Assembly (NCBI GenBank): GCA_037200045.1 | Contig: JBBCHM010000002.1 | Span: forward strand, 669,241-733,240 | Direction: 5' to 3' | Source: Rhizomicrobium sp. | GTDB taxonomy: Bacteria; Pseudomonadota; Alphaproteobacteria; Micropepsales; Micropepsaceae | DNA: 64,000 nucleotides | Part shown: one piece after another, positions 16,603-64,000 of the stretch | Layout of the letters: the number at the start of each line of letters is the position of its first letter | Position numbering within the stretch: the stretch's first letter is position 1 | Program-made: the position numbers and the translations under genes | Notes under the pieces: model-generated | Told to the model about the DNA's origin: nothing | The model's database searches: none | Seen by the model: the letters and a program-made list of their open reading frames with translations, nothing else

Positions 16603-16607
16603 GGCGA

Positions 16608-30269: not shown

Positions 30270-30387
30270 CGCAATCGCCTCCCAGTCGCCGTTTCTGTTC
30301 GTCCAGACACTCTTCGGGTCTGTGGCGCCTGCCCGCCCGGGTCGAGAAAAGGGCTTGAGCAAACGTCGCACCGATCATATAGATTAT

Positions 30388-30404
30388 ATGCTAGCATGCA
30401 AGAT
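30388..30404. promoter_or_regulatory. Third copy of the GntR operator motif (ATGCTAGCATGCAAGAT)
   Basis: In the BVMO/mhpD divergent region; 16/17 match to the 27647 copy. Confidence 0.65.
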
Positions 30405-30449
30405 GGTCGAACACGGAACGAACGGCCGCCGCTTAAGGGCGGACAAGAC

Positions 30450-31268: not shown

Positions 31269-31272
31269 GAAT

Positions 31273-32205: not shown

Positions 32206-33242
32206 TGGCGTTCGATCCGACAACGACCAAGCTCTACATCCAGGACGTGACGCTGCGCGACGGCATGCATGCGATCCGTCATCGCTACGGCCTCAGCCAT
32301 GTCCGCGCCATCGCGGCGGCGCTCGACGGCGCCGGTGTCGACGCCATCGAGATCGCGCATGGCGACGGGCTCGAAGGCTCGTCCTTCAACTATGGCCTGG
32401 GGGCGCACACCGACTGGGAATGGATCGAAGCCGTGGCCGATTGCGTCGAGCGCGCCGTCGTCACCACGCTGCTGCTGCCCGGCATCGGCACGGTGCACGA
32501 CCTCAAACAGGCCTACCGGCTGGGGGCGCGCTCGGTGCGGATCGCAACGCACTGCACCGAGGCGGACGTTGCCCGGCAGCATATCGCCGCCGCGCGCGAT
32601 CTCGGCATGGACACGGCCGGCTTTTTGATGATGAGCCACATGATCGAGCCCGACCGGCTGGCGGCGCAGGCCAAGCTGATGGAAAGCTATGGCGCGACCT
32701 GTGTCTATGTGACGGATTCGGGCGGCGCGCTCGACATGGACGGCGTGCGCGAAAGGCTGGAAGCCTATGATCGCGTGCTGGAGCCGCGGACGGCGCGCGG
32801 GATCCACGCGCATCATAATCTCAGCCTCGGCGTGGCGAATTCCCTGGTGGCGGTACAGGCGGGCGCCATCCGTATCGATGCCAGCCTGACCGGCATGGGT
32901 GCCGGGGCGGGCAACGCGCCGCTGGAGGTCTTCATCGCCGCCGCCGACCGCAAGGGCTGGCGGCATGGCTGCGATCTCTACAAGCTGATGGACGCCGCCG
33001 AGGATCTCGTGCGGCCGTTGCAGGACCGGCCGGTCCGGGTGGACCGCGAGACGCTCAGTCTCGGCTATGCCGGCGTGTATTCCTCCTTCCTGCGCCATGC
33101 CGAAAAGGCCAGCGCCGACCACGGCATCGACACGCGCGAGATATTGGTCGAGCTTGGCCGCCGTCGCATGGTCGGAGGGCAAGAGGATATGATCGTCGAC
33201 GTCGCGCTCGACCTGCTGGCCGCGCGCGGCGCGACGTCTTAG
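32202..33242 (+). CDS. mhpE: 4-hydroxy-2-oxovalerate aldolase (DmpG-type)
   Basis: [44 protein letters not shown]. Confidence 0.95.
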
Positions 33243-45219: not shown

Positions 45220-47538
<2,319 letters not shown>

Positions 47539-47670: not shown

Positions 47671-49164
47671 TTACTTTTCTGCCGCTATCCGTTCCGCGGC
47701 GAGGATCCCGAAGGTCGACGCCTCCGACCAACCGCCGGCCACGCCAAGACGCGGCCCGCCCTGGAGGCCGCCCATCGCGCCGCCCGCCGCATAGAGGCCT
47801 GGGATCGGACGGTCCGTCATGTCGACAATCTGGGCGTCCGGGGTCACCGCCAGGCCGCCCATCGCAAACGTGATCCCGGCTATGACGGGCATGGCGAAAT
47901 AGGGCGGGACACTGAGGGCACGGCCGCCCGGACTGCGGGGCGGGGCGAGGAGCGCCGCGCCCGAAGCCGCGCCGTCGTTCTTGCGCGCCGGACCTTCGAA
48001 GACCTCCTCTCCCGGAACGCCGGTGACCTCATAGAGCGAGGCACGTGCGGCGGGGCCGGCCGCGCTCGCCCAATAGGCGTTCACGGCTTCGACATTGCGC
48101 ACGACGGCGTCGCGCGGAAGACCGGCCTTCTCCGCCAGCTCGCCGATCGTGCCGGCCTCTAACAGCGTCGCCGCCAGTTCGACGAACAACGGGTTGGCGG
48201 GGACATCGCCATAGCGGCCTTCGCGCTCCCACATGCTCGAATCGAAGATCGCCCAGCAATTGTCGGGCGTGCGGCTCCGCGCGATCGCGTTGGCGACGCG
48301 TTCGCCCTTCGCGCTTTCGTCGACGAAGCGTTCGCCATGGCCGTCGACGAGCAGGCCGGTATAGATCAGAGCGCCCGGCGCGGGCAGCGGCCACAGCCGG
48401 TCGTCGGTCAGCGCGTCGCGCGACAGCGCATAGCCGTAGAACCACTCCATGTTCACGCATTTCGCGCCCAGCGAAAGGCCGATGCGCAGCGCATCGCCGG
48501 TATCGTTGGGCGATCCGCGCAGCTTGTAGTGCGGCGTGATGTATTTCGCGACGAGTTCGGGATTGCCCTGAAAGCCGCCATCGCAAAGCAGAAGATTGCG
48601 GCCGCGGACAAAGCTGTCGGATGTCGCGGTGCGCACGCGCACCGCATAGCCGCCGTCGATCCGCTCGGCCGCCACCGCGCGATGGCCGATGCGATGATCC
48701 CCGCCCGCGGCGACGAAGGCGGCATGCATCTTCGAAAGCAGGATGTCCGGCCCCTTGTCGCGCCAGCCCCGCCCGACGGTGGAGTCGCGTTGGGGCAGCA
48801 GCACGTTCTGCATCGCCTCCTCGGCCGGATTGAGCACGCCGAACGGCGCGCCTTCCTCGGCCAGGAAACGATAGGCCCGGCGCACATTGTTCGCCCAGGC
48901 GCGCACGACATCGGCGCGCGCGTGCCCGCCGGTTTCGTCCATCACCTTGTTGTAGAGTTCGTCAGGCGTGCGGATCTTGGGATCCCACATCGCGGCGTGA
49001 AACCACCCACCGGAAATGCGTCCATTGCCAAAACCCGGCGCGCTGTCGTGGCGCTCGAGCACGATGGCGCGGAGCCCGAGCTGCTGTGCGCGGCGCGCGG
49101 CGCAAAGCCCCGCCACGCCGCTGCCGACAATCACGACGTCGGCGATATCGCCCGCGCCGCTCAT
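47671..49164 (-). CDS. FAD-dependent oxidoreductase (FAD_binding_2: flavocytochrome c / KstD / TcuA superfamily)
   Basis: IVGSGVAG, LLCDGGFQGN, TGDA, LLVDGHGERFVDE, ITFAMGGL, GLYAAG. Confidence 0.88.
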   Translation of the reverse strand: MSGAGDIADVVIVGSGVAGLCAARRAQQLGLRAIVLERHDSAPGFGNGRISGGWFHAAMWDPKIRTPDELYNKVMDETGGHARADVVRAWANNVRRAYRFLAEEGAPFGVLNPAEEAMQNVLLPQRDSTVGRGWRDKGPDILLSKMHAAFVAAGGDHRIGHRAVAAERIDGGYAVRVRTATSDSFVRGRNLLLCDGGFQGNPELVAKYITPHYKLRGSPNDTGDALRIGLSLGAKCVNMEWFYGYALSRDALTDDRLWPLPAPGALIYTGLLVDGHGERFVDESAKGERVANAIARSRTPDNCWAIFDSSMWEREGRYGDVPANPLFVELAATLLEAGTIGELAEKAGLPRDAVVRNVEAVNAYWASAAGPAARASLYEVTGVPGEEVFEGPARKNDGAASGAALLAPPRSPGGRALSVPPYFAMPVIAGITFAMGGLAVTPDAQIVDMTDRPIPGLYAAGGAMGGLQGGPRLGVAGGWSEASTFGILAAERIAAEK

Positions 49165-50036
49165 GGCGCTTCGACACCCGGCACGGAAACTTCGACGATG
49201 TCGATCTGGCCGCTTGAATTAACTTCGGCGTCCTTGCGGCGGTCCGAACCGATGTACCGCAGATTGTCGATCAGTTCGAAGCCGGTGGTCGCGAGATACA
49301 GCGTCGTCCCGTTGGGGCCGCCGAGCGCGGGCGCCAGCGTATCGCGCCCCGGATTGGGAATCTCGTCGAGCAGTCTTCCATCCGCGCCCAGGCGATAGGC
49401 GCCGACATTGCCGCCGCCGCACCATACCGCGCCTTCGGCGTCGAGGCAGATGCCGTCGATGACAAAGCCCGGTCGTTCCGCCATCGTTTCGCGGTTCGTC
49501 AAGGAGCCGTCGGACTTGATGCGAAAGCGCGTGAGGCGGCCGATGCGCGCTTCCGCGACGATCAGGTGCTCGCCATCCGGCGTGACCGCCGAACCGTTCG
49601 GCGCGACCATGTCTTCGGCCACGACCCGGCAGGTGCCGTCCGGCATCGCAAGAATGACATTATCCGTCGCCGAACCCGTGGCTCCGCCGTTGCGGCCGCC
49701 GACATAGGCGCGCCCTTCTTTGTCCACCACCATGTCGTTGATGAACGACGCGCAGTGCGGCGAAAGATCGGCATGGGTCCACAGCTTGCCGTCCTTGAAC
49801 GCCAGGAGCTTGCGGTCAAGCATCGCGGAAATCAGCAGCGTACCGTCGGCGAGAAAGCCCAGTCCGGACGGCCGGTCGTCGATCCCGACGACCTTGCTGA
49901 GTTTGCCGTCCGCAGTGAGATGCATCACGGCATGGCCGTGAATGTCGGAGAACCACAGCGCGCCATGGCGCCAGCGCGGCCCTTCCGGAAAGCTGATCCC
50001 GTCGGCGAGTGTGCGAAGCCCAGTCTTGCCCGTCAT
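49161..50036 (-). CDS. SMP-30/gluconolactonase/LRE family protein
   Basis: FPEGPRW, WFSDI, PSGLGF, NDMVVD, PNG, DGICLDAEGAVW. Confidence 0.9.
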   Translation of the reverse strand: MTGKTGLRTLADGISFPEGPRWRHGALWFSDIHGHAVMHLTADGKLSKVVGIDDRPSGLGFLADGTLLISAMLDRKLLAFKDGKLWTHADLSPHCASFINDMVVDKEGRAYVGGRNGGATGSATDNVILAMPDGTCRVVAEDMVAPNGSAVTPDGEHLIVAEARIGRLTRFRIKSDGSLTNRETMAERPGFVIDGICLDAEGAVWCGGGNVGAYRLGADGRLLDEIPNPGRDTLAPALGGPNGTTLYLATTGFELIDNLRYIGSDRRKDAEVNSSGQIDIVEVSVPGVEAP

Positions 50037-50101: not shown

Positions 50102-50881
50102 TTAGCCGGCGGTATAGCCACCATCTACATATAGCGTCTGGCCGGTCATAAAGGCCGAGGCGGGCGAGGCCAGGAACACCAGCGCCCCCAAAAGGTCGCC
50201 CACTTCGCCCAACCGGCCGACGGCGATCCGGCGCTTGATACCGTCATACAAGTCGGGCTGCAGCCGGATCAGATCGCGGTTGAGGTCGGTCACGATGACC
50301 GTCGCCCCCAGCGTGTTGACCGTGATGCCGTCCCCGGCCACCTCGAAGGCCAGGGAGGCGCCAAAATTCGCCAGCGCCGCCTTGCTCGCGCAATAGGGCG
50401 TGCGGTTGGCCATGCCGCGGCCGGACAGAACCGAGCCCATATTGATGACGCGGCCATACTTGTTCCGGGCCATCACCGGCACGAAGGCGCGCGCGCACAG
50501 GAACGCGCCGGTCACGTTGACATCGACGATGCGGCGCCATTCCTCCACCGAAAGTTCGGTCATCAGCTTCGGCGCGGTGACGCCGGCATTGTTGAAGAGA
50601 ATGTCGGCCCGGCCGAACCCCGCCTGCACCTTCTCCGCGACCAGGTTCACGGCCGCCTCGTCGGTCACATCGGCTTCCACGATAACGGCGCGCCGGCCTG
50701 CGCCCGTCACGGCTTGCGCAGCGCGTTCCAATTTTGCGCGGTCGCGGGCTACGAGCGCCACGTCGGCGCCGGCCTGGGCAAAGGCGCGCGCGGCGGCCGA
50801 GCCGATACCGCCGCCGGCACCCGTCACGACGGCAACCCGACCGTCGAGCCGGAAACTGTCGAGGATCGAGGTCTCGGACAT
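50102..50881 (-). CDS. SDR family oxidoreductase
   Basis: TGAGGGIG, NNAG, YCASK, MTGQTLYVDGG. Confidence 0.92.
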   Translation of the reverse strand: MSETSILDSFRLDGRVAVVTGAGGGIGSAAARAFAQAGADVALVARDRAKLERAAQAVTGAGRRAVIVEADVTDEAAVNLVAEKVQAGFGRADILFNNAGVTAPKLMTELSVEEWRRIVDVNVTGAFLCARAFVPVMARNKYGRVINMGSVLSGRGMANRTPYCASKAALANFGASLAFEVAGDGITVNTLGATVIVTDLNRDLIRLQPDLYDGIKRRIAVGRLGEVGDLLGALVFLASPASAFMTGQTLYVDGGYTAG

Positions 50882-50885: not shown

Positions 50886-51065
50886 CTAGTCCTTCTTCAA
50901 GTCGAGCGGCATATGAAGCTCGATGAGCGCGCGAATGCGCTCGCGCAGATGTTCGTACTGGCCGGCAAGCAGGCCGTCGTCGCATCGGCACAGATGCTCG
51001 GCCTTTTCCAGCATGGCGCGCAAAATCGTCAGGTCATCGGCGCTCTTTTGTTGCGCGTGCACCAT
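50886..51065 (-). CDS. 59-aa small hypothetical protein (not in ORF track)
   Basis: GGAG RBS; MVHAQQKSADDLTILRAMLEKAEHLCRCDDGLLAGQYEHLRERIRALIELHMPLDLKKD-stop; fills the gap between the ligase and SDR genes. Confidence 0.65.
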   Translation of the reverse strand: MVHAQQKSADDLTILRAMLEKAEHLCRCDDGLLAGQYEHLRERIRALIELHMPLDLKKD

Positions 51066-51076: not shown

Positions 51077-52459
51077 TTACAATTTGTAGCCCTGCTGGCG
51101 TTCGTCGCTCCAGCGCCTCGCCTTATAAGCGAATTCCGGCAGTTCCGAGCGCGCCACTTCGCGCAGGGTCATCCACACATTGGTGCGCTGCTTGATCGCG
51201 GCGCGAATCTCCTCGAGCCGTTCCGCGCCGCCCGCGGCGAAAGCGATGAGCACCTCGACATCGGTCTTGCCGTCCGGGGTCGTGAACACGCGGCCGGCAT
51301 ATTCGACAACCTCGGGAAACGCGAAAACCGCGGCGTCGACCGCGCTCGGCCACACGTTGTTTCCGCGGATCTTCAACATGTCGTCGAAGCGGCCGATCGT
51401 GCCGCATTCGATGGCGTTCCAGCAGAGCCCGCCGCCGGCATCGCGGTAAGAAACAAAGCGTGCCGCATCGCCGGTCCGGAAGCGGATGACCGGCGTGCCT
51501 TCGATCGACAGATTGGTGACGACCATCTCGCCGGCCTCGCCGGACGCGACGGGACGCATGGTCTGCGGATCGACGACCTCGGTCAGGGTTTCCCATTCGA
51601 ACATCCGCATCAATCCGCGGGCACCGCCGCGCGTGACGGCGCCGCGATCGAGCGTCGATGCGGAGAACCCGGCGCATTGCGTGCTGCCATAGCCTTCCTG
51701 CAGACCGCAGCCCCAATGTTCTTCGATCTTCTGCGCCCACTCGACCGGGTAACCTTCCGCCGCGATGAACAGGCCATGCATGTCCGGAAACGCCTCGCGC
51801 GGGACAATGCCACGGCGCAGCAGCGCGTCGGTCAGGGTGTGAAGATAGTTGGTGGACGCGTAGATGAAATTCAGACCGCCCAGCCGCAGCATCAGATCGA
51901 TCTTGGCATCGGTCGACATATTGCCGCCGGGATGAAAGCCGGTCGCCCCGATGATGCGCAGCCCTTCGCCCGGCCCCCAGCCGCCCGTGGTCATCCCGCC
52001 GGCCGGCACGCAGTTCAGCACGGTGTCGCCCCGGCGCAGACCCGCCAGGTGCCAGGCGAGCGCATGCAGATAGCCCAGCATGTGCACGTCGCGCTGGCTG
52101 CGGCCATAAATCTCCTGCCCCTGCCCGGAAGTGCCGCCCGTCAGATTGACGAGGGCAACATCCGTGCGCGGAATGCCGAGCCGCGTGCCGAAAGGCGGCG
52201 CGGCCTGCTGGTCGGCCAGGAAATCGGCCTTCGACGATGTCGGAAAGCGCTGCGCAAACGCTTCGAGCGTTTCGATATCGTCCGGACGCAGCCCGACGGA
52301 CTGCATCTTCTGTCGGTAATAGGCGCTCGAATCGTAAAGGCGCGCGACCTGGCGGCGCACCTTCACCAATTGAAGGCCTTCAAGCTCGTCGCGCGACAGC
52401 GCGGCGAGCCTGGCCAGATACGGCGAATCCTCATATGGATTTTTCATGCCCGTGCGCAC
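51077..52459 (-). CDS. Phenylacetate-CoA ligase (PaaK)-family acyl-CoA ligase
   Basis: FPTSSKAD, LTGGTSG, QEGYGSTQ, PVIRFRTGD, GRFDDMLKIRGNNVWP. Confidence 0.88.
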   Translation of the reverse strand: MRTGMKNPYEDSPYLARLAALSRDELEGLQLVKVRRQVARLYDSSAYYRQKMQSVGLRPDDIETLEAFAQRFPTSSKADFLADQQAAPPFGTRLGIPRTDVALVNLTGGTSGQGQEIYGRSQRDVHMLGYLHALAWHLAGLRRGDTVLNCVPAGGMTTGGWGPGEGLRIIGATGFHPGGNMSTDAKIDLMLRLGGLNFIYASTNYLHTLTDALLRRGIVPREAFPDMHGLFIAAEGYPVEWAQKIEEHWGCGLQEGYGSTQCAGFSASTLDRGAVTRGGARGLMRMFEWETLTEVVDPQTMRPVASGEAGEMVVTNLSIEGTPVIRFRTGDAARFVSYRDAGGGLCWNAIECGTIGRFDDMLKIRGNNVWPSAVDAAVFAFPEVVEYAGRVFTTPDGKTDVEVLIAFAAGGAERLEEIRAAIKQRTNVWMTLREVARSELPEFAYKARRWSDERQQGYKL

Positions 52460-52477: not shown

Positions 52478-52891
52478 CTAGGAAGATGCCGGCACGAAGA
52501 GCGGGAGCGTCACGCTGTCCGTCACGTCGCGGAATATCACGCGTACCGGCGTCTCCGCCCGAACGTCCGACGGATCGCACTCGACGATGTTCGATACGAT
52601 CCGCACGCCTTCATCCAGCTCGATGATCGCGACGACATACGGCACGTCGGACGCATAGACATCTTTCGGCACCGGGTGGCGCACGACGATCCAGCTGAAA
52701 ACCTTGCCACGCCCGGACGCTTCCAGCCAGCGTACGGCGTCCGAACGGCAATGCGAGCAGAACGTCGTGGGGGGAAAGCGATTGCGGCCGCAATTGCCGC
52801 ATTGCTGGATCAGCAATTTGTGTCGTCGCGTCCCTTCCCAGAAGGGCGCGCTCTCGGGATCGGGGACCGGCAACGGCTTGGCATATGTCAT
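52478..52891 (-). CDS. DUF35 Zn-ribbon/OB-fold protein
   Basis: PFWEG, CGNCG...CSHC, GKVFSW, PYVVAIIELDEG. Confidence 0.92.
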   Translation of the reverse strand: MTYAKPLPVPDPESAPFWEGTRRHKLLIQQCGNCGRNRFPPTTFCSHCRSDAVRWLEASGRGKVFSWIVVRHPVPKDVYASDVPYVVAIIELDEGVRIVSNIVECDPSDVRAETPVRVIFRDVTDSVTLPLFVPASS

Positions 52892-52894
52892 GGA

Positions 52895-54052
52895 TCAATT
52901 CCGCAAAATCATCGCGCTGCCGCAGGTCATCGCGCCGGCGGTGGTAAGGCCGATCCTGGCATCGGGCACCTGGCGAGGCCCAGCCTCGCCGCGCAATTGC
53001 TGCACCGCCTCGATGACGTGGTTCAGACCGTGAATATAGCCTTCCGACAGCAATCCGCCGGCGGTGTTGAGCGGAAGCTCGCCGCCGCGCGCGATGCGGC
53101 CGCCCTGCACATAGGCGCCGCCTTCGCCTTCCTTGCAGAAGCCGAGGCCTTCCAGCGCCATGATCACGCTGTAGGTGAAACAGTCGTAGATCTCGGCGAA
53201 ATCGACGTCGCGCTGCGTGACGCCGGCGCTGCGCCACAGATCGTCGGCGATGTATTTGGCGAAGTTGTGGGATTGATCGGGCCAGCGGATCGCATCGAAC
53301 AGATCCTCGCCCTGGTCCGGCCCGCCGCCATAGGCACCGCCCATGATGTAGACCGGCTTCTTCTTCATGTCGCGCGCGCGTTCCGTGCCGGTGATCAGCA
53401 CGGCGCAGGCGCCGTCGGTTTCCAGGCAGATATCGAGCATGCGGAACGGCTCGACGATCATGCGCGAGTCGAGATAGTCGGCCATGGTGATCGGTTGGCG
53501 CTGCATGGCGCGCGGATTGCGCGTTGCGTTTTCCCGAAAAGTGACCGCGATCTCGCCGAGCTGTTCGGGCGCCGTGCCATATTTGATGATGTGCCGGCGG
53601 CACCACATCGCCATGGCCTGCGGATAGGTGATCCAGCCGAAGGGCGCGGTGTATTGCGTGATTCCATGCGCGGAAAGATCGCGACCACCGCCCAGCCGGA
53701 AGCCGGAACGTCCGTTCATCGCGCGAAAGCACAGCACGTTGCGGGCAAGTCCGGCTTCGATCGCCGCCGTCGCGGCCAGGGTGATGAGATTGGCGGCGTT
53801 GCCGCCGCTCAGATAGTCGACGGCATAGCCGGCATTATCGAGGCCGAGTTCGGTGGCAACCGCCATCGCCGGCGCGGAATCGTTGAAGTGGAAGCTGATG
53901 ACGCCGTCGATGTCGGCCGCTTCAAGGCCGGCGTCGGCGATCGCCTTCAGGCACGCTTCGGACGCCAGGCTGCGGACGGTGCGTCCCGACTTCTTGGAGA
54001 AATCCGTCCAGCCGATTCCTGCGATCGCGTATTTGTCGCGTAGGCTCCACAT
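52895..54052 (-). CDS. Ltp2-like (SCP-x thiolase-fold) aldolase
   Basis: AIAGIGWTDFSKKSGR, CLETDG, IYDCFT, NTAGGLLSEGYIHG; no thiolase nucleophile Cys (DYLSGGNAA). Confidence 0.87.
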   Translation of the reverse strand: MWSLRDKYAIAGIGWTDFSKKSGRTVRSLASEACLKAIADAGLEAADIDGVISFHFNDSAPAMAVATELGLDNAGYAVDYLSGGNAANLITLAATAAIEAGLARNVLCFRAMNGRSGFRLGGGRDLSAHGITQYTAPFGWITYPQAMAMWCRRHIIKYGTAPEQLGEIAVTFRENATRNPRAMQRQPITMADYLDSRMIVEPFRMLDICLETDGACAVLITGTERARDMKKKPVYIMGGAYGGGPDQGEDLFDAIRWPDQSHNFAKYIADDLWRSAGVTQRDVDFAEIYDCFTYSVIMALEGLGFCKEGEGGAYVQGGRIARGGELPLNTAGGLLSEGYIHGLNHVIEAVQQLRGEAGPRQVPDARIGLTTAGAMTCGSAMILRN

Positions 54053-54055: not shown

Positions 54056-54847
54056 TCAACCCTTGTCGTAATCCGGTTTGCGTTTTTCCTTGAAGGCGAT
54101 CAGACCTTCGGCCGCGTCGGGATGCGTCGTCGCATAATCATGGACGATCCTGATCTCCTGCTTCAGTCCCGATGCCTGATCCGTCTTCAGCGTCAGATTG
54201 GCGAGCCGTTTCGCGGTCGCCATGCCCGTGCGGCTCTTTTCAAGCAACCCGTCCACCAGCGCATCCACGCCGCCGTCGAGTTCGGCCGCTGGAAATACGC
54301 GGCACAGCAGGCCGATGCGATGGGCTTCCGCCGCCGGCAGCAATTCGCCCGTCAGCATGAGATATTTGGCCATCTGCAAGCCGACCGCGCGCGGCAGGCG
54401 CTGCGATCCGCCGGCGCCGGGCAATTGGCCGAAATTGAGATGTCCGTCGCCGATGGAAGCCGTGTCGGCCGCCACGGCCAGATCGCAGGCGAGCAAGAGT
54501 TCAAGGCCGCCGGCGACACACACACCATTGATGGCGGCAATGTAGATCTTTGGCGAAGCCTCGATCGTGTCGAGAAGATCGTGGAATTTCGACAGGAAGT
54601 CTTGGAAACGTTCTGGGGATTTGTAGAGTCCCAAATAGCCTTCCAGATCTCCGCCCGCCGAAAAGCTTCGGCCACTTCCCGTGATCACGACGACGCCAAT
54701 GTCGTTCCGCGCCTCGATTTCCGAAACTGCGGCACGCAACTTCCCAATAGTTGCCCAATCAAGAGGATTCAGCTTGGAAGGTCTGTTCAGGGTGACCCGG
54801 GCACGGCCTGGTGCAAAAGAGATAAGGACTTCGTTTTCCGTGCTCAC
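54056..54847 (-). CDS. Enoyl-CoA hydratase/isomerase family protein
   Basis: TLNRPSKLN, FSAGGDL, AAINGVCVAGGLE, LPGAGG; GTG 54847 chosen (ORF track start 54919). Confidence 0.9.
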   Translation of the reverse strand: MSTENEVLISFAPGRARVTLNRPSKLNPLDWATIGKLRAAVSEIEARNDIGVVVITGSGRSFSAGGDLEGYLGLYKSPERFQDFLSKFHDLLDTIEASPKIYIAAINGVCVAGGLELLLACDLAVAADTASIGDGHLNFGQLPGAGGSQRLPRAVGLQMAKYLMLTGELLPAAEAHRIGLLCRVFPAAELDGGVDALVDGLLEKSRTGMATAKRLANLTLKTDQASGLKQEIRIVHDYATTHPDAAEGLIAFKEKRKPDYDKG

Positions 54848-54873: not shown

Positions 54874-54887
54874 TTTGTCCGACAGTT
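54874..54887. promoter_or_regulatory. FadR-type operator copy 3 (TTTGTCCGACAGTT)
   Basis: In the crotonase/fadR divergent promoter; reverse complement AACTGTCGGACAAA matches copy 2. Confidence 0.7.
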
Positions 54888-54942: not shown

Positions 54943-55722
54943 ATGGCAGTAATCGAGACCAAGCAGGAAAGTGGGCTGGTGCCACTGGAACGGGCGCCGA
55001 CCTATCGCTTGGTTCATGACGCCATCGAACGCGAGATCCTGGCGGGGCGCCTGAAGATCGGCGATCCGTTGCCGGCGGAATTGCAGTTGGCCGAGCGTTT
55101 CAAGGTTAACCGCTCCACGGTGCGCGAGGGCATCCGCCTTCTTGAGAAAAGCGGGTTGGTGGAGCGCAAGGGCGGAAAGCGCCCCCGGATCGCCGCGCCG
55201 CGCTATCGCGACCTGGCCTCGGCCGCGAGCCGCGCGCTGATCCTGCATGCCGTTACCTTTCGCGAATTGTGGGAGGCCTCGATGGTCATCGAGCCGTCGA
55301 CGGCGGAATTCGCGGCGCGAAACATCACCGAGGCCGACATTGCGAAGCTTTCGGCCAACATCGCCGAGATGGAGGAGAGCGTCGAGCGTCTGGAAACCGG
55401 GCTGGAAGACAAGCCGGACGGGTTCGTGGACCTGGACCGGAAATTTCACGAATTGCTGGTCAACGCGACCGGCAATCGCGTCCTGATCCTGGCGCATGAG
55501 CCTGTCACCACCCTGTTCATTCCGGCCGGACGTCTCATACTTCCGCGCCTGAAGACCTATCGCCGCGTGCTCGACGCGCATCGGCATATTTTCGACTTCC
55601 TCAAGAAGCGCGATCCCGAAGGCGCGGGCAAATGGATGCACCGGCATATGGACGATTTCCGCCGTGGCTACGAATTGACCGGGCTGGATTTCGATACGCC
55701 GCTCGAGATGGTCAACGTCTGA
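54943..55722 (+). CDS. FadR/GntR family transcriptional regulator
   Basis: GDPLPAELQLAERFKVNRSTVREGI HTH; FCD with DRKFHELL...ATGN. Confidence 0.92.
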   Translation: MAVIETKQESGLVPLERAPTYRLVHDAIEREILAGRLKIGDPLPAELQLAERFKVNRSTVREGIRLLEKSGLVERKGGKRPRIAAPRYRDLASAASRALILHAVTFRELWEASMVIEPSTAEFAARNITEADIAKLSANIAEMEESVERLETGLEDKPDGFVDLDRKFHELLVNATGNRVLILAHEPVTTLFIPAGRLILPRLKTYRRVLDAHRHIFDFLKKRDPEGAGKWMHRHMDDFRRGYELTGLDFDTPLEMVNV

Positions 55723-56769: not shown

Positions 56770-58734
56770 ATGACCACGACCTCACTTCTCAATTCTCCGA
56801 TCCGCATCGGGGCGATGACCGCCCCCAACCGGATCATGATGGCGACGCACGGGCCGCGCCTGCCGCAGGCACGCTACCTAGGCTATCTGGAGGCCCGGGC
56901 GGCGGGTGGGGTCGGTCTCTTCGGCTTCAACGTCGGGGCGCTGGGGATTTCGCCGTTTCCCTTCGGACCGGGGCGGACAGCGCCGCCCTTTGCCGCCGAG
57001 CCCGACGCCGTCCCACCACACCCCCGCACGGCCGAGGGCCGCACTTTCTATGACGGCCAGATCGGCACCTACCGCGTGTGGAGCGACGCCGTTCATCGCC
57101 ATGGCGCCAAGTCGATCGGCCAGCTCTATCATCCGGGCGCTGCCCGCCATGCCGACAACTATCAGCCGGCCGTCGGACCGTCGGCGGTTGCCGACGAACT
57201 CGAGGGCAATGTTCCGCGCGCCCTCACCCGCAAGGATATCGCCGATCTGACTCAGGCCTATGCCTTGGGAGCGCGGCGGGCGCTGGAGGCGCGCTGCGAC
57301 GGGCTGGAACTACATGCCGCGCACGGATACCTGCTGCACGAATTTCTGTCGCCGCTCTTCAACCAGCGCGACGACATCTATGGCGGCACGCTGGAGAACC
57401 GGCTCCGGCTCGTTCTGGAGATCCTGGCCGCGGTCCGCGACGCCATCGACGACGCCTGCCCCGTCGGCCTGCGATTGACAGGGCCCGACAATGCCGAGGG
57501 CGGCCTCAGCCTCGAAGATATCGTCCATGTCGCGACGCGCGCGACGCAATCGGGCGCCGCCTATATCAGCATTTCCGCCGGGACCTATGCCGGCCTTCTG
57601 GGCGGGAAGAACCTGCCCTATGTCGCACCTGGCTTCGTGAGGTCGCCGCCGAACGTCGCCGCAGCCGCCGCCGTCCGGCGCGCCGTTGCCGTTCCGGTCA
57701 TCGTCACCGGCCGTATCGTCGATCTCGCCATTGCCGAAGACATCGTGCGGTCCGAAGCAGCCGACGTTGTCGGCATCGTGCGCGGGCTGATCGCCGAGCC
57801 GCGCCTGGCCGCCAAGCATTTCCAGAAGTCCGACGAGCTTCCGACCCCGTGCATCGCCTGCAATGAATGCCACACCGGACAGATGGTGGCGTGCCCCACC
57901 AATCCGTCGATCGGCTGGGAGGTACTCGGCATGCCGAAGGCGGCCGAAAAAGCGCTGCGCGTGCTGGTGATCGGCGCGGGCCCCGCCGGTATCCAATGCG
58001 CGTTGACCGCCGCCGAACGGGGACACCCTGTCGAACTCGTCGAACGCGACGGCGAGATCGGCGGGCTGACCGCGCTTCTGGCGCGAAGCACCGAACAGGC
58101 GGATTACGCAGCCTATCTGCGCTATGCCACCACGATGCTCGGCCGGCGCGGCGTCAACCTTCGGCTGAACACTGAAGCGGATGCCGCGCTGATCGTGCAG
58201 CTCTCGCCGGATGTCGTGGTGCTGGCGACAGGCGCCGTGCGTGCATCCCGGCCGGGATATACCGATCCGGTGGCTGCGATGAACACGCCCGCCCTATCGG
58301 GCCGCCATGTCGTGGTCGACGGCGGCGTCGGCAAGCACCTTCCCCCGCTCATCTGCGCCAACCGGCTGGCCGAAATGGGATGCCGCGTCACGCTGGTCAC
58401 CCAATCCGCGGCACCGGGCGAAAAAGTCGAGGCGGCTAGCCGCATCGCGCTTCTGGCGTCGCTGAGCGCGCGAGGCGTCGCCATCGTTCCCGGCACACGC
58501 GCGGGCGCGTTCGAAAATCGGGCGCTGAGCCTTCGGAACGTCTGGACAGGCGCGACGACGAACCTTGCCGACATCGATGCCGTCGTCTGTGCCGACAATC
58601 GCTTTCCCGGCGCGGCGCTCGAGAGGGCGGTGCGCGACCTTGGACTTCCGGTCCATGTCATCGGCGACGCGCTGGCGCCGCGGCGCATGCTGCATGCCTC
58701 GCTGGACGGTGCGCGGCTGGGCAACACCCTATGA
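56770..58734 (+). CDS. Large OYE-family NADH:flavin oxidoreductase (FMN barrel + Fe-S + FAD)
   Basis: PNRIMM, ELHAAHGYLLHEFLSP, NQRDDIYGG, CIACNEC...CPTNP, VIGAGPAG, GDA. Confidence 0.9.
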   Translation: MTTTSLLNSPIRIGAMTAPNRIMMATHGPRLPQARYLGYLEARAAGGVGLFGFNVGALGISPFPFGPGRTAPPFAAEPDAVPPHPRTAEGRTFYDGQIGTYRVWSDAVHRHGAKSIGQLYHPGAARHADNYQPAVGPSAVADELEGNVPRALTRKDIADLTQAYALGARRALEARCDGLELHAAHGYLLHEFLSPLFNQRDDIYGGTLENRLRLVLEILAAVRDAIDDACPVGLRLTGPDNAEGGLSLEDIVHVATRATQSGAAYISISAGTYAGLLGGKNLPYVAPGFVRSPPNVAAAAAVRRAVAVPVIVTGRIVDLAIAEDIVRSEAADVVGIVRGLIAEPRLAAKHFQKSDELPTPCIACNECHTGQMVACPTNPSIGWEVLGMPKAAEKALRVLVIGAGPAGIQCALTAAERGHPVELVERDGEIGGLTALLARSTEQADYAAYLRYATTMLGRRGVNLRLNTEADAALIVQLSPDVVVLATGAVRASRPGYTDPVAAMNTPALSGRHVVVDGGVGKHLPPLICANRLAEMGCRVTLVTQSAAPGEKVEAASRIALLASLSARGVAIVPGTRAGAFENRALSLRNVWTGATTNLADIDAVVCADNRFPGAALERAVRDLGLPVHVIGDALAPRRMLHASLDGARLGNTL

Positions 58735-58743
58735 GCGAAATGC

Positions 58744-59619
58744 ATGATCGATAAACAAATCGGGTTGTCCGCCTTCGTCGCGAGTCTTCGCGACGGCATG
58801 ACGATCGGCATCGGTGGCTGGGCGACCCGCCGCAAGCCCATGACGCTGGTGCGCGCCATCGCGCGCTCCGGCCTGAAGGACCTGACGGTCGTTTCCTATG
58901 GCGGTCCGGACGTGGGCATCCTGGCGGCGGAGGGCAAGATCCGGAAGCTCGTTTTCGGATTCGTATCGCTGGATCACATCCCGCTCGATCCGCATTTCCG
59001 CGCCGCGCGCCAGGCCGGCGCCTTCGAGATTCTGGAACTGGACGAAGGCATGGTGCATTGGGGCCTGAGGGCCGCGGCCATGCATCTGCCGTTTCTGCCA
59101 TCCCGCAGCGGCCTCGCGACCGACATTGCCAACCAGCCGGAATTGAAGACGATCCGCAGCCCCTATGCCGACGGCGAGCTTCTGCTGGCCATGCCGGCGC
59201 TGAGGCTCGATGCGGCGCTCATCCATGTGCATCGCGCGGACCGGCACGGAAATGCGCTGATCCTGGGTCCCGACCCGTTCTTCGACGAATTGATGGCGAG
59301 GGCGGCGGAGCGCACCTACATCTCCACCGAGCGCCTGGTGAGCACCGAAGATCTCGCCATCGCCGAAAACGCCCGTTTCAACCCGTTCGAACGCAGCGTC
59401 GTGCAGGGCGTGATCCTGGCACCTTTCGGCGCGCATCCCACGGTCGCCACACCGGACTACGGCATCGACATGGCGCATCTGAAGGAATACGCCGCAAGCG
59501 CGGCGCCCGGCGCCTGGCAGGAATATCGCGCGCGATTCATCGCCGTCGAGCCCGAACGATATCTCGCCAGCGTCGGCGGCGCCGAGAATCTCGGCGCCTT
59601 GCCGGCGCCCATCTATTGA
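58744..59619 (+). CDS. ipdA: CoA-transferase-like subunit alpha, steroid C/D-ring hydrolase (IpdA/ScdL1)
   Basis: GIGGWATRRKPM, YGGPDVG, FVSLD, DEGMVHWGLRAAA, GAHPT. Confidence 0.88.
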   Translation: MIDKQIGLSAFVASLRDGMTIGIGGWATRRKPMTLVRAIARSGLKDLTVVSYGGPDVGILAAEGKIRKLVFGFVSLDHIPLDPHFRAARQAGAFEILELDEGMVHWGLRAAAMHLPFLPSRSGLATDIANQPELKTIRSPYADGELLLAMPALRLDAALIHVHRADRHGNALILGPDPFFDELMARAAERTYISTERLVSTEDLAIAENARFNPFERSVVQGVILAPFGAHPTVATPDYGIDMAHLKEYAASAAPGAWQEYRARFIAVEPERYLASVGGAENLGALPAPIY

Positions 59620-59627
59620 GCCCCGCC

Positions 59628-60437
59628 ATGACTTACGGCTACGCCCTCGCCGACCTTTGCATCTGCGCCGCGGCCGAAGCCTGGCGCCACGATGGCGAAG
59701 TTCTGGCGACCGGCATCACACCCATCCCGCGCCTCGCCGCGGGACTGGCAAAGCTCACCTTCAACGACGCGCTGCTGATGACCGACAGCGAAGCGTTTTT
59801 CGTGTCGGAGCCGGTGCCGCTCGGCCCGCGAAACGGCTATCAGCCGAAATTCGAAGGCTGGGCCTCCTACGCGCGCACCTTCGATTTGCTGTGGGGCGGC
59901 AAACGCCACGCCTTCGTCCTGCCGACGCAGATCGACCGCTTCGGCCAGGCGAACATCAGCGTTGTCGGCGATCATGCCAGGCCCAAGACGGCGCTGCTCG
60001 GTTCGCGCGGCTATCCCGGCAATTCGGTGCATCATCCCAACAGCTATTTCCTCCCGACGCACAACAAGCGCGCCTTCGTGGCGGGCGAAGTCGATTTCGT
60101 GTCGGCCGCCGGTTACAACCCCGCCCGATGGCCGGACGGGAAAAAACCGCCCGAGCTCGATCTGCGGCTGATCGTCAGCAATCTCGCGGTGCTCGATTTC
60201 GAGGGCCCCGACCATGCGATCCGCGTGCGTTCGCTGCACCCCGGCGTTTCGTTCGAAGACGTGCAGGACAAAACCGGCTTTGCGCTGGAAAAGGCGCCCG
60301 GCCTCGCGCAGACGCCGGCACCCACGCCCGCCCAGCTCGATCTCATCCGCACCAGACTCGATCCTCTCGGGTTGCGGCTCGGCGTGTTCAAGGACGACAG
60401 CGACGGCGCGTTCGTCGCGACCAAGGAGCCGGCATGA
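59628..60437 (+). CDS. ipdB: CoA-transferase-like subunit beta (IpdB/ScdL2)
   Basis: ADLCICAAAEAWRHDGEVL, LMTDSEA, QIDRFGQANIS, LGSRGYPGN, SLHPGV. Confidence 0.88.
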   Translation: MTYGYALADLCICAAAEAWRHDGEVLATGITPIPRLAAGLAKLTFNDALLMTDSEAFFVSEPVPLGPRNGYQPKFEGWASYARTFDLLWGGKRHAFVLPTQIDRFGQANISVVGDHARPKTALLGSRGYPGNSVHHPNSYFLPTHNKRAFVAGEVDFVSAAGYNPARWPDGKKPPELDLRLIVSNLAVLDFEGPDHAIRVRSLHPGVSFEDVQDKTGFALEKAPGLAQTPAPTPAQLDLIRTRLDPLGLRLGVFKDDSDGAFVATKEPA

Positions 60438-61321
60438 GCGATCTCATCGAACCGAAAAAGACCGATGTCGTCTACGAAACGGACGCGCCGGTCATCTATG
60501 TCGCGGAAGGCCCGATCGCGTGGATCACGATGAACCGCGAGCGGTATCACAACGTCCAGAACTCGCAGATGACCTACGCCCTCGACGCCGCCTTCCGGCG
60601 GGCTGTGGACGATGACGCGATCAAGGTGATCGTGCTGGGCGGCGCCGGAAAGCATTTCTCCGCCGGGCATGACATCGGCACGCCGGGCCGCGATCTGCAT
60701 CACAGCTTCGAGCGCCGCCACCTGCTCTACGATCACGTCAACAAGCCCGGCGCCGAACTTCTCTACACGCGCGAGCAGGAAGTCTATCTCGGCATGTGCC
60801 GGCGCTGGCGCGACCTGCCCAAGCCGACCATCGCCATGGTGCAAGGCGCCTGTATCGCGGGCGCGCTCATGCTGGCCTGGGTGTGCGACTTCATCGTCGC
60901 GTCCGACGATGCCTTCTTCCAGGATCCGGTGGTGCGGATGGGAATCCCCGGCGTGGAATATTTCGCGCATGCCTTCGAGCTGCCGCCGCGCATTGCCAAG
61001 GAGTTCCTGCTCCTGGGCGAGCGGATGTCCGCCGAACGCGCCGCGCAATTCGGCATGGTCAACCGGGTGGTTCCACGCGCCGCGCTCAAGGACGAAGTCG
61101 GCGCCATGGCGGCGAAACTCGCCGCGCAGCCGCGCCTGGGCGTGTGGCTGAGCAAGCAGGCGATCAATCACGTGGAGGAATTGCGCGGCAAGCGCACGGC
61201 GATGGACGCCGTCTTTCACATGCACCATTTCGCGCACGCCCAGAACGACCTGGTGAGCGGCGACAGCCTGGCGGGACTGGACGGCAAGTCCATGGCGCAG
61301 GCGAACAAGACGCAGGGATAA
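60434..61321 (+). CDS. echA13: Enoyl-CoA hydratase (EchA13/ScdN-like)
   Basis: NVQNSQMTYALD, FSAGHDIG, REQEVYLGMCRRWR, MGIPGVEYFAH. Confidence 0.82.
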   Translation: MSDLIEPKKTDVVYETDAPVIYVAEGPIAWITMNRERYHNVQNSQMTYALDAAFRRAVDDDAIKVIVLGGAGKHFSAGHDIGTPGRDLHHSFERRHLLYDHVNKPGAELLYTREQEVYLGMCRRWRDLPKPTIAMVQGACIAGALMLAWVCDFIVASDDAFFQDPVVRMGIPGVEYFAHAFELPPRIAKEFLLLGERMSAERAAQFGMVNRVVPRAALKDEVGAMAAKLAAQPRLGVWLSKQAINHVEELRGKRTAMDAVFHMHHFAHAQNDLVSGDSLAGLDGKSMAQANKTQG

Positions 61322-61338
61322 CGCGGTTGGGCAATGCC

Positions 61339-62406
61339 TTGACGACACCGCTGACGCGCCTCCTGGGCTGCCGCTATCCCGTCATCCAGACGGCGATGGG
61401 CTGGGTCGCGACACCCCGGCTCGTGGCCGCAGCCTGTGAAGCCGGCGCGTTCGGCTTTCTTGCCGGCGCGGTGATGACCGCGCGCGAACTGGAAGCCGCC
61501 ATCGCGGAGGTCCGCGAAAAGACGCAAGCGCCTTTCGGCGTGAACTTTCACATGTTCCAGCCCGAGGCGGCCGCGATCGTGGATATCGTCATCGCCCATC
61601 GCGTCCGTGCGGTGAGCTTCGGTCGCGGGCCGGATGCCACGGCGATCGCCCGGTTCCGCAAGGCCGGCATCCTCTGCGTTCCCACCGTCGGCGCGCTGAA
61701 ACATGCGCGCAAAATGGAGGAGCTCGGCGTGGACATGCTTGTCGTGCAAGGCGGCGAAGGTGGCGGCCATACCGGCGGCGTGGCGACAACCGTGCTGCTG
61801 CCCCAGGTGCTCGATGCGGTTGCCGTCCCCGTGGTCGCGGCGGGCGGCTTCGCGGATGGCCGCGGCCTTGCGGCCGCGCTCGCCTATGGCGCGGTGGGAA
61901 TCGCCATGGGCACGCGCTTCCTTCTGACGCAGGAAAGTCCCGTGCCTGCGGCCACCAAACAGCGCTACCTAGCAGCCGACGCTGGCGACATCGTGGTTTC
62001 GACCAAGCTGGACGGCCTGCCCCAGCGGATGATCCGCAACCGCGTTCTGGCTCGCATCGACCGATCCGGGCGCTGGTCCATGTGGCTGCGCGGCTTGCGG
62101 GCGGCCGTTGCGATGAAGCGGCAAACAGGCGCGAGCTGGCCTAAGTTGTTCAGCGCCGCCCGCAAAATGAGAAGAAGCGGCGGCCTCGGCTTGGCCCAAG
62201 CGATGATGGCGGGCACCGCGCCGACGCTGATACGCAAAGCCATCGTCGAAGGCGAACCCGAGAACGGCATCCTGCCCAGCGGGCAGATCGCCGGCCTGAT
62301 CGACGAGATCCCTACCTGCCACGACCTGGTGGATCGCATCGCAGAAGAAGCCCGGCAATGCATCGCGGCACTGGCGCCGTACGCAGCCGCAGCAGCACAA
62401 GCGTGA
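61339..62406 (+). CDS. ipdC: Nitronate monooxygenase-family enoyl-CoA reductase (IpdC/ScdK-like)
   Basis: YPVIQTAMGWV, QGGEGGGHTG, AAGGFADGRG, MGTRFL; TTG start at 61327 or 61339. Confidence 0.82.
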   Translation: MTTPLTRLLGCRYPVIQTAMGWVATPRLVAAACEAGAFGFLAGAVMTARELEAAIAEVREKTQAPFGVNFHMFQPEAAAIVDIVIAHRVRAVSFGRGPDATAIARFRKAGILCVPTVGALKHARKMEELGVDMLVVQGGEGGGHTGGVATTVLLPQVLDAVAVPVVAAGGFADGRGLAAALAYGAVGIAMGTRFLLTQESPVPAATKQRYLAADAGDIVVSTKLDGLPQRMIRNRVLARIDRSGRWSMWLRGLRAAVAMKRQTGASWPKLFSAARKMRRSGGLGLAQAMMAGTAPTLIRKAIVEGEPENGILPSGQIAGLIDEIPTCHDLVDRIAEEARQCIAALAPYAAAAAQA

Positions 62407-62413
62407 GGACGTC

Positions 62414-63163
62414 ATGCCCATCGCCACCGAGATTCACGGTCGCATCGCCGAGATCATCCTGGACCATCCCCCCGTCAATGCGCTCGATTCGACGCTGTGG
62501 AACGCGTTTCCCGGCCACGTCCGCGAGCTTGGGGCTCGCGAAGATATTCACTGCGTCCTGATCTACGGCCGGGGACGCGGCTTCTGCGCCGGGGTCGATA
62601 TCAAGGAGATGCAGGCGCATCCCGAGCGCATCACGCTTCTCAACCGCGGCAATTATCTGAGCTTCAAGGCCGTGCGCGAATGTCCGGTTCCGGTCGTCGT
62701 TGCCGCGCACGGCTTCGTCATGGGCAGCGGCATCGGCCTGTGCGGCGCGAGCGACACGATCATCGCATCCGACGATTGCCATTTCGCGCTGCCCGAAATC
62801 GACCGCGGCGCCATGGGTGGTGCTTCGCACCTGTTGCGCATGCTGCCGCTGCACAAGGTCCGCGCTGCCTTCTTCACCGGCGGCCGCATTACGGCGCAGG
62901 AAGCCTGGCGGCTGGGCGCGATCGAGAAGATCGTGCCGAAGGCTGAGCTGGTCGAAGAGGCGCGGGCCTTCTGCGGGGTCATCGCCGGCAAGAGCCGAAC
63001 GGCGCTGGTGCTGGCCAAGCAGGCGCTCAACGGCATCGAAGCGCGCGATGTCGACCGCGACTACCGCTTCGAACAGGGCTTCACGCTGGAAATGTACATG
63101 CACGCGGACAGCCAGAAATCCCGCGACGCCTTCGTCAGCAAGGGCGACAAGGCCGAATTTTGA
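62414..63163 (+). CDS. echA20: Enoyl-CoA hydratase (EchA20/ScdY-like)
   Basis: PPVNAL, FCAGVDIKE, LPEIDRG, YRFEQGFT. Confidence 0.85.
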   Translation: MPIATEIHGRIAEIILDHPPVNALDSTLWNAFPGHVRELGAREDIHCVLIYGRGRGFCAGVDIKEMQAHPERITLLNRGNYLSFKAVRECPVPVVVAAHGFVMGSGIGLCGASDTIIASDDCHFALPEIDRGAMGGASHLLRMLPLHKVRAAFFTGGRITAQEAWRLGAIEKIVPKAELVEEARAFCGVIAGKSRTALVLAKQALNGIEARDVDRDYRFEQGFTLEMYMHADSQKSRDAFVSKGDKAEF

Positions 63164-63173
63164 GGCGCATGCG

Positions 63174-64000
63174 ATGGACCTGACTTACACCTTCGAGCAA
63201 AAGGCATTCCGCGCCGAGGCTCGCACGTGGCTGGAGGAGAACGTTCCGGCCGAACCGCTTGCCTCCTTCGACACGCCGGCAGGATTCGAAGCGCATCGTA
63301 GCTGGGAACGGCGCCTGCATGCCGGCGGTTTCGGCACGGTCACGTGGCCCAAGGAATATGGCGGCCGCGGTCTCAACCTCATCGAGTGGCTGATCTTCGA
63401 GGAAGAATACTATCGCGCGCAGGCACCGGGCCGGGTGAACCAGAACGGCATTTTTTTGCTCGCGCCGACCATGATGGAGTTCGGCACGCCGGAGCAGAAA
63501 GCGCGGTTCCTGCCCGCCATGGCGCGAGGCGACGAGATCTGGGCGCAGGCCTGGTCCGAGCCGCAGGCCGGCAGCGATCTGGCCGCCGTGCGCGCCAGCG
63601 CCACGCGCGACGGCGACGTCTACGTCCTCAACGGCCATAAGATCTGGTCGTCGCGCGCCGTCTTTGCCGATTGGGCGTTTGGCCTGTTCCGCACCGATCC
63701 GTCCTCGCAGCGGCACAAGGAGCTTTCCCTGATCCTCTTCCCGCTGCATGCGCCGGGCGTACGGGTGCAGCCCATCCGGCAGATCGGGGGCGAGCCGGGC
63801 TTTGCCGAGATTTTCCTCGACGATGTTCGGATACCGGCTCAGAACCGGTTGGGCGACGAAGGCGCAGGCTGGAAGGTCTGCATGGCAACGGCGGGCTTCG
63901 AGCGCGGCCTCATGCTACGCAGCCCCGGCCGGTTTCAGGCAACGGCGAAGCGCCTGGTGGAACTGTGGCGCCGCCGATCGCACACGCCGGACCCCGCCAT
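63174..64000 (+). CDS. fadE31: Acyl-CoA dehydrogenase (FadE31/ScdM1-like), truncated by the right edge
   Basis: Manual translation MDLTYTFEQKAFRAE..., RVNQNGIFLLAPT, WAQAWSEPQAGSDLA, GHKIWSSRA, FERGLMLRSPGRF. Confidence 0.85.
   Translation, partial: MDLTYTFEQKAFRAEARTWLEENVPAEPLASFDTPAGFEAHRSWERRLHAGGFGTVTWPKEYGGRGLNLIEWLIFEEEYYRAQAPGRVNQNGIFLLAPTMMEFGTPEQKARFLPAMARGDEIWAQAWSEPQAGSDLAAVRASATRDGDVYVLNGHKIWSSRAVFADWAFGLFRTDPSSQRHKELSLILFPLHAPGVRVQPIRQIGGEPGFAEIFLDDVRIPAQNRLGDEGAGWKVCMATAGFERGLMLRSPGRFQATAKRLVELWRRRSHTPDPA

Follow-up and report, generated by a model that had tools for sequence, protein, structure and literature searches.

What reaction is carried out by a thiolase-fold protein that lacks the nucleophilic cysteine of thiolases, and on which substrate, when its gene is preceded by a crotonase gene and followed by a stand-alone DUF35 gene? 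The question is raised by an operon on the minus strand of a 64,000-nt stretch of Rhizomicrobium sp. DNA (GenBank assembly GCA_037200045.1, contig JBBCHM010000002.1, positions 669,241 to 733,240 of the forward strand), called the window below. Active-site residues and a structural model indicate that the thiolase-fold protein P0001 and the DUF35 protein P0002 are probably a retro-aldolase of the Ltp2/Sal type and its DUF35 subunit, which would cleave a β-hydroxyacyl-CoA delivered by the neighbouring crotonase. An earlier interpretation of the locus made from its letters only (the sequence-only reading) had already proposed an aldolase of the Ltp2 kind, and its individual claims are taken up below with the results that bear on them.

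Active site and fold of P0001

In a phmmer search against the PDB sequences, the closest sequence to P0001 is 6OK1_A, the T. curvata Ltp2 (TcLtp2; E 2.4e-73). The catalytic residues of TcLtp2, as established by mutagenesis, are Tyr294 and Tyr344, and mutation of His296 causes only a 14-fold loss (PMC12329534). The alignment places Y289 of P0001 (motif IYDCFT) on Tyr294, C291 on His296 and Y339 (motif EGYIHG) on Tyr344. Thus both Ltp2-type tyrosines are kept, as the sequence-only reading had claimed, and the active site of P0001 reads Y289-D290-C291-F292 and E337-G-Y339-I-H341. The nucleophilic Cys of the zebrafish SCP2-thiolase (NNNCSTG, 6HSJ) aligns with G84 of P0001, within SGGNAAN. The features that mark SCP2 and BbsAB thiolases, namely the nucleophilic Cys, HDCF and the His of GHP, are replaced in P0001 by Gly84, YDCF and EGY. 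The motifs GGN, IYDCFT and SE(G/A)YIHG are invariant across 76 orthologs (76/76).

The AlphaFold2 model of P0001 (pLDDT 95, pTM 0.95) has 6OK1 as its top Foldseek match, with a TM-score of 0.92-0.93 and 39-40% identity. The next matches are 4U4E and then the aldolase Sal of Comamonas testosteroni (CtSal, 9MYR; TM-score 0.89, 29% identity). A thiolase fold without its nucleophile, proposed from the sequence, is therefore what the model and the alignment both show. The host genome encodes three pairs of a thiolase-like and a DUF35 protein. One paralog (on L004) retains the Cys, HDCF and GHP and is a true SCP2 thiolase; since it keeps the thiolase residues, the loss of the Cys in P0001 is specific. 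A second Cys-less thiolase-fold/DUF35 pair (L003 9481-11194, at G000:C2 ~1.415 Mb) carries YDSF and N-H-P and resembles the uncharacterised Sphaerobacter 'thiolase' 4U4E.

The sequence-only reading had also singled out the replacement of His by Cys in the YDH motif. The Cys is indeed present, but it is not unusual. Searched exhaustively with HMMER, a set of 1.84 billion cluster representatives yielded 1093 proteins at E <= 1e-30, and the motifs were counted in the 143 nearest full-length representatives of the family. Nearly all of these lack the nucleophilic Cys. The third residue of Y-D-x varies (C, A, G, N or H): Y-D-C with the second Tyr is the most frequent combination (28 of 143), while His at the YDHF position, a residue of the oxyanion hole, is found in about 9 and Y-D-H with the second Tyr, the state of Ltp2, in 7. 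Judging from this census, the Cys of Y-D-C-F is the common state and probably the older one. Moreover, such a Cys is catalytic in CtSal, where Tyr302 and Cys304 of the motif YDCY act as base and acid, and where the Cys304Ala, Cys304Ser and Cys304His mutants are all dead (PMC12329534). In CtSal, the residue equivalent to Ltp2 Tyr344 is Gln, and the nucleophile is replaced by Gly, so that no thiolysis is possible (PMC12329534). By its residues, the site of P0001 is a Sal/Ltp2 hybrid, with a Tyr/Cys pair as in Sal and a Tyr/Tyr pair as in Ltp2.

The comparison can be extended to the two systems as a whole. P0001 resembles the TcLtp2-ChsH2 complex (6OK1) and the M. tuberculosis Ltp2, which belong to the retro-aldolase system of the steroid C3 side chain, in its thiolase fold, the Gly at the nucleophile position, both catalytic tyrosines and a DUF35 partner of the Cys4 type. 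It differs in having Cys where Ltp2 has His296 in Y-D-x-F, and in its surroundings: the DUF35 protein is free-standing, whereas in the Ltp2 system it is the C-terminus of the MaoC hydratase ChsH2; the partner is a crotonase, with no ChsH1/ChsH2, no ChsE-type acyl-CoA dehydrogenase (ACAD) and no igr-type context; and the module has a PaaK-like ligase of its own and is found in genomes that lack genes for attack on the steroid rings. CtSal-Shy (9MYR), the aldolase of the bile-acid C5 side chain, is likewise proteobacterial and shares with P0001 the replacement of the nucleophile by Gly, the presence of a DUF35 partner and Y-D-C, Y289/C291 matching Tyr302/Cys304 within YDCF instead of YDCY. However, the identity to CtSal is low, P0001 has Tyr339 where Sal has Gln352, and the free Cys4 DUF35 protein contrasts with the DUF35 of Shy, a MaoC fusion whose ribbon is of the Cys3His type. 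P0001 thus appears from its residues to work like Ltp2 and Sal, yet it is outside both named enzymes.

Partner proteins and the conserved operon

P0002 has an intact Cys4 ribbon of the form CxxC...CxxC (C31, C34, C45 and C48) and an OB fold, and its best PDB matches are the aldolase partners 9MYR_B (6.5e-25) and 6OK1_B (1.6e-23). It is encoded as a separate protein, and none of the seven MaoC matches of the genome (0/7) falls inside the window coordinates; the stand-alone DUF35 protein and the missing ChsH1/H2 MaoC domain of the sequence-only reading are both borne out. Like P0002, 36 of 51 DUF35 orthologs retain the four ribbon cysteines. Sphingomonad copies lack two of them (CTCS, CSCS) or all four (VTSS), and most of these Cys-depleted copies, whose genes lie ~1.2 kb past the aldolase start (loci L029-L045, L072 and L076), adjoin or are fused to an ipd/steroid-type cluster.

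The open reading frame (ORF) of the crotonase is open to 54919, and its likely start is the in-frame GTG at 54847, which gives the length of the orthologs, 263 aa. The protein retains the first catalytic Glu (Glu140 in GGLEL; Glu144 in the rat enoyl-CoA hydratase, ECH). The second, Glu164 in rat ECH, is replaced by His160 (IGDGHLNFG), which is kept in 46 of 47 crotonase orthologs. From these residues, the Glu/His crotonase is a distinct subfamily. Because it lacks the second catalytic Glu, we apply the name 'hydratase' to it by inference. The proposal that a crotonase takes the place of the MaoC hydratase is upheld insofar as the crotonase gene lies 3 nt upstream of the aldolase gene, but the pairing is not unique and the hydratase part of the proposal carries the reservation just given. 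Plasmid pIBU218 has a trio of crotonase, OB-fold and Ltp-like (lipid-transfer-protein) genes with the motif YDHF+Y. Ltp-like genes with free OB-fold partners are also found on a Rhodococcus plasmid (YDCF+Y) and on a Croceicoccus plasmid (YDCF+H), and a further Rhodococcus homolog has YDAF+Y.

Orthologs of the aldolase, sharing 71-84% identity, are found in 80 genome loci, and the next relatives or any other family cluster are at most 50% identical. The carriers are Alphaproteobacteria (including Pseudolabrys, Hyphococcus, Sphingopyxis, Sphingobium, Novosphingobium, Croceicoccus estronivorus, Bosea, Stella and Caulobacter), Betaproteobacteria (Polaromonas and metagenome-assembled genomes, MAGs, of Burkholderiales) and one Rokubacteria MAG. 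Metagenomes, too, contain orthologs in abundance. None turned up among 400 genomes sampled evenly across the phylum, and the distribution of the clade is therefore patchy.

Neighbours were counted within +/-10 kb of the 80 orthologous loci. DUF35 is present in 79, the crotonase in 77, a short-chain dehydrogenase/reductase (SDR) in 69 and the PaaK-like ligase in 65; the trio of crotonase, aldolase and DUF35 persists in 77-79 of the 80 loci. An ortholog of the GntR regulator is found in 40 loci, in most of them divergent from the crotonase, an APH-family kinase in 27, a Liv-type ABC importer in about 22-27, and ipdA or FadD3-like ring-opening genes in 14-23. The order crotonase-aldolase-DUF35-ligase-small ORF-SDR(-SDR-APH-ABC) is seen in the Pfam-labelled gene tables of Hyphococcus, a Rhodospirillaceae isolate, Pseudolabrys, Polaromonas and Novosphingobium. 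The aldolase and DUF35 genes are the core of this operon, which is widespread and tightly conserved.

This core has variants. In some marine MAGs the ligase is of the FadD type, and a plasmid of Sphingopyxis macrogoltabida carries crotonase-aldolase-DUF35-APH-ACAD without a ligase. The APH-family phosphotransferase adjoins the operon or sits within it (L055/L087 14798-15859; L090 11578-13854). The APH and ACAD genes of the S. macrogoltabida plasmid recall the 4-hydroxyacyl-CoA kinase/ACAD pairs lvaA/lvaC and ACAD10/11. The levulinate lvaABCDE scheme may be paralleled by the APH kinase, the small protein, the SDR and the ligase, which recur together. This analogy hints that the enoyl-CoA might, in some versions of the operon, be derived from an acid with a 4-oxo or 4-hydroxy group.

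Proposed reaction and competing explanations

The operon probably encodes a self-contained acyl-CoA pathway for an acid whose β-carbon blocks normal β-oxidation. The acid would be imported, here via the TonB-dependent receptor and elsewhere via the Liv-type ABC system, and converted to its CoA thioester by the PaaK-like ligase. The crotonase, with Glu140 and His160, would hydrate (or isomerise and hydrate) the enoyl-CoA to a β-hydroxyacyl-CoA, probably a tertiary alcohol. In the complex of P0001 and P0002, Tyr289 would then take the proton of the β-hydroxyl and the Cα-Cβ bond would break. The enolate would be stabilised and then protonated by Tyr339, as in Ltp2, and/or by Cys291, as in Sal, to give acetyl-CoA (or propionyl-CoA) and a ketone or aldehyde. 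The target of the SDR(s) would be a hydroxyl or carbonyl group, either in the substrate or in the product.

A tertiary alcohol is plausible from the logic by which cells would employ an aldolase in place of a dehydrogenase and a thiolase, and by analogy with Ltp2, AedK/AedL and ipfDE. Thiolase-fold/DUF35 proteins break C-C bonds of this kind in the degradation of the oestrogen A/B rings, where AedK/AedL cleave a β-hydroxyacyl-CoA (PMC8913865), and in that of ibuprofen, through ipfDE (PMC9195938). In AedK/AedL, IpfD/IpfE and Ltp3/Ltp4 with EchA19, as proposed here, a Cys-less or thiolase-like subunit and a DUF35 protein remove an acyl-CoA unit at a blocked β-position. Free DUF35 proteins and neighbouring crotonases occur in some of them, as in the trio of pIBU218. 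However, these sets belong to different clades (38-47% identity where aligned) with other ligases or CoA-transferases and other substrates, and the order crotonase(Glu/His)-aldolase-DUF35-PaaK-small protein-SDR is absent from them. The central claim of the sequence-only reading was an aldolase of the Ltp2 kind instead of a thiolase, with a substrate different from the 17-hydroxy steroid side chain. All tests that were run agree with it: the active-site residues, the fold, the DUF35 partner and conserved crotonase, the absence of KshA, MaoC and an igr-type ACAD, and the carrier genomes without IpdA.

Several observations weigh against a retro-aldolase of this type. Crotonase, SDR, thiolase-like and DUF35 genes together also have the look of a bbs-type β-oxidation cycle for bulky substrates. 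The crotonase, without its second catalytic Glu, is perhaps not a simple hydratase. No ACAD is a constant member of the operon, so that the double bond has no evident source except in a substrate that is itself unsaturated or by a route through the recurrent APH kinase. Finally, ipdAB-type genes adjoin the module or are fused with it at roughly one locus in four, so that a steroid-derived substrate is possible.

This last point leads to the alternative that survives best, although we consider it rather unlikely: the module would be a dedicated step in the catabolism of the steroid nucleus, of oestrogens or of HIP-like compounds, feeding the adjacent ring-opening genes of the ipdAB/ipdC/echA20 type. 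Genes for IpdA, FadD3-like, FadE and EchA20-like proteins lie directly upstream in 14-23/80 loci, and in sphingomonads and Hyphococcus the module follows a series of ipdA-ipdB-ECH-ipdC-echA20-fadE-fadD3-like genes. The crotonase start and the FadD3-like gene overlap in Novosphingobium sp. MD-1, where the module is followed by a gene for a KshA-like Rieske protein. In the window itself, the putative operator TGTCNGACA found at the crotonase also precedes the OYE-ipdA operon, and oestrogen rings are the target of AedK, a homolog of Ltp2 from actinobacteria. Sphingomonad orthologs occupy the same kind of steroid-degradation cluster as EGO55_13720/EGO55_13715 of Novosphingobium (Caenibius) tardaugens, which are probably the same gene pair as the counterparts of P0001/P0002. 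In the literature we found no assigned function for the module, and the sole mention, of this probable N. tardaugens counterpart, gives its role as unknown. In comparison with the sphingomonad loci, however, the ribbon of P0002 is intact and its operon has its own regulator. The operon also occurs without an IpdA ortholog in Pseudolabrys sp. Root1462, Polaromonas aquatica, Stella vacuolata, Bosea lathyri and Alsobacter metallidurans. Most loci carry the GntR regulator and Liv-type importer instead, like stand-alone operons for imported acids, and the ligase, regulator and importer mark the module as the entry point of a free exogenous acid. Moreover, the host genome (96% complete) has no match to KshA_C and nothing above the cut-off for HsaD. 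Steroid side-chain cleavage, which in the Ltp2 system is the retro-aldol splitting of 17-hydroxy-3-oxo-4-pregnene-20-carboxyl-CoA, is unlikely because this genome lacks KshA and five carriers lack IpdA; a canonical side-chain enzyme was rejected, there being, in addition, no MaoC gene nearby and no igr-type ACAD.

The host genome does contain ring-opening genes without an upper steroid pathway. An ipd-like set lies on the other strand of the window (56770-64000, plus strand), behind a flavoenzyme of the old yellow enzyme (OYE)/FadH type, in the order OYE/FadH-type, ipdA, ipdB, ECH (PRK08290 type), NMO-family (ipdC-like), ECH (PRK07938 type) and ACAD.

It is highly improbable that P0001 is a working thiolase of the BbsAB kind, with the crotonase, SDR and thiolase/DUF35 proteins performing an ordinary turn of β-oxidation on a bulky acyl-CoA. 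The gene content does parallel bbsH/bbsCD/bbsAB, the source annotation labels the orthologs 'acetyl-CoA acetyltransferase', and there are weak NCBIfam matches to BbsA and BbsB (32.5 and 106.5 bits), which are far below the cut-offs. Against this stand the invariant Gly at the nucleophile position, the same residue with which CtSal is stated to be unable to thiolyse, the tyrosines at both thiolase His positions, and the genuine SCP2 thiolase (Cys/HDCF/GHP) encoded elsewhere in the genome. Some other thiolase-fold/DUF35 chemistry, be it C-C formation or acyl transfer of the PhlABC or HMG-CoA-synthase-complex (HMGS) type, decarboxylation, or a non-catalytic scaffold, has equally little in its favour: DUF35 scaffolds PhlABC and the archaeal thiolase/HMGS complex, both among the PDB matches, and TbSLP, with YDCF, shows only a slow malonyl-CoA decarboxylation, but the PhlABC and HMGS families are much more distant (21-24% identity, against 39-40% to Ltp2), there is no PhlA or HMGS partner gene, the context of regulator, importer and ligase is catabolic, and the invariant catalytic residues weigh against a pure scaffold.

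If P0001 and P0002 are a retro-aldolase, a candidate class of substrates can be named, although we regard this as quite improbable and offer it as a speculation. The operon might be a bacterial route for isoprenoid acids that are β-branched or attached to a ring: after activation with CoA and hydration, a retro-aldol cleavage would take off C2 units. The idea comes only from chemical logic and from the ring-acetate-type (PaaK-like) ligase. Such chemistry matches both known bacterial metabolites of abscisic acid (ABA) exactly. The conversion of ABA-CoA and water to acetyl-CoA and dehydrovomifoliol would suit the proposed ligase/hydratase/retro-aldolase set, as would that of 1-hydroxy-2,6,6-trimethyl-4-oxo-2-cyclohexene-1-acetyl-CoA to acetyl-CoA and ketoisophorone. 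A further match to the proposed chemistry is the orphan (1-hydroxycyclohexan-1-yl)acetyl-CoA lyase (EC 4.1.3.35). In PMC9599779, PMC6938937 and PMC13619911, bacterial ABA catabolism still has no genes assigned to it.

Gene series of the window and meaning for the family

The features of the operon are listed in the table. The genes from the crotonase through the SDR are separated by 3, 3, 18, 11 and 4 nt, the first two gaps being those from crotonase end to aldolase start and from aldolase stop to DUF35 start. Both the aldolase and the DUF35 ORFs are real, as indicated by their strong Pfam scores and a G+C content at third codon positions of 0.81 and 0.78, respectively.

Table. Features of the operon and its surroundings (window coordinates).
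Feature	Position	Strand	Remarks
GntR/FCD (FadR-type) regulator	54943..55722	+	divergent from crotonase
Palindrome TGTCCGACA	54876..54884	none	between regulator and crotonase; one of four TGTCNGACA sites
Crotonase-family gene	54056..54847	-	263 aa; Pfam ECH_1 8.7e-56
Thiolase-fold retro-aldolase candidate P0001	52895..54052	-	385 aa; Pfam Thiolase_C_1 4.3e-42
Stand-alone DUF35 P0002	52478..52891	-	137 aa; OB_ChsH2_C 1.9e-20 and zf-ChsH2 6.2e-13
PaaK-like acyl-CoA ligase (phenylacetate-CoA ligase family)	51077..52459	-	460 aa
59-aa helical protein (helix predicted)	50886..51065	-	conserved motif D-A-L-L-x-G-Q-Y-x-H-L-R-x-R-I-x-A-L
SDR oxidoreductase, 'SDR2' type	50102..50881	-	counterpart of at least 45% identity (SDR of the window's type) in 61/80 loci
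SMP-30/gluconolactonase-like protein, possible lactonase	49161..50036	-	lineage-specific operon addition
FAD_binding_2 flavoprotein, distantly TcuA/KstD-like	47671..49164	-	lineage-specific addition
TonB-dependent receptor	45220..47538	-	final gene of the minus-strand series

The palindrome TGTCNGACA occurs four times between 47.6 and 56.7 kb (starts 47614, 50078, 54876 and 56731), against 0.59 expected, and 0 of 100 shuffles reached four. All four copies are intergenic. The promoter regions that contain them belong to the receptor gene, to the gene for the SMP-30-like protein, to the crotonase and its divergent regulator, and to the OYE/DapA-like pair. Their placement suggests one putative regulon of the FadR type.

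A protein of about 60 aa is kept across the alpha- and betaproteobacterial operons. That of the window has no match in Pfam or NCBIfam and no usable one in the ESM Atlas. The sequence-only reading had drawn attention to an H-x-C-x-C motif in it; this motif is not conserved among the orthologs, whose cysteines vary. When the neighbours and recurrent partners (APH, SDR1, SDR2, binding protein, ACADs, Rieske and LLM) were scanned with NCBIfam and Pfam in order to name the pathway, only generic or sub-threshold matches were obtained.

Elsewhere in the window, positions 24775-33242 hold an mhp-like meta-cleavage set with a glyoxalase-fold dioxygenase, a C-C hydrolase, a GntR regulator, a LigB-type 3-carboxyethylcatechol 2,3-dioxygenase (above the NCBIfam cut-off), an acetaldehyde dehydrogenase and a 4-hydroxy-2-oxovalerate aldolase. 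A PtlE-like Baeyer-Villiger monooxygenase is found at 28410-30371 (696 bits, below the cut-off). Genes for haem uptake and utilisation lie at 14738-20773 (ABC ATPase, FecCD permease, periplasmic binding protein, HemS/ChuX and TonB-dependent receptor).

Only two thiolase-fold retro-aldolases with a DUF35 partner have been solved so far, both of them steroid side-chain enzymes. The clade of P0001 would extend this retro-aldol mechanism beyond steroid side chains, with a different hydratase partner that itself has an unusual Glu/His active site. Since one site holds the residue sets of both Sal (Tyr/Cys) and Ltp2 (Tyr/Tyr), nature itself offers a way to see which of the two pairs is the catalytic one. 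The substrate should be findable by experiment, because a regulator, a ligase and an importer are part of the operon and some carriers can be cultured. Its identity would also explain the unassigned gene pair in the steroid clusters of sphingomonads, and might supply the missing genes of an orphan lyase activity or of the catabolism of plant-hormone or terpenoid acids.

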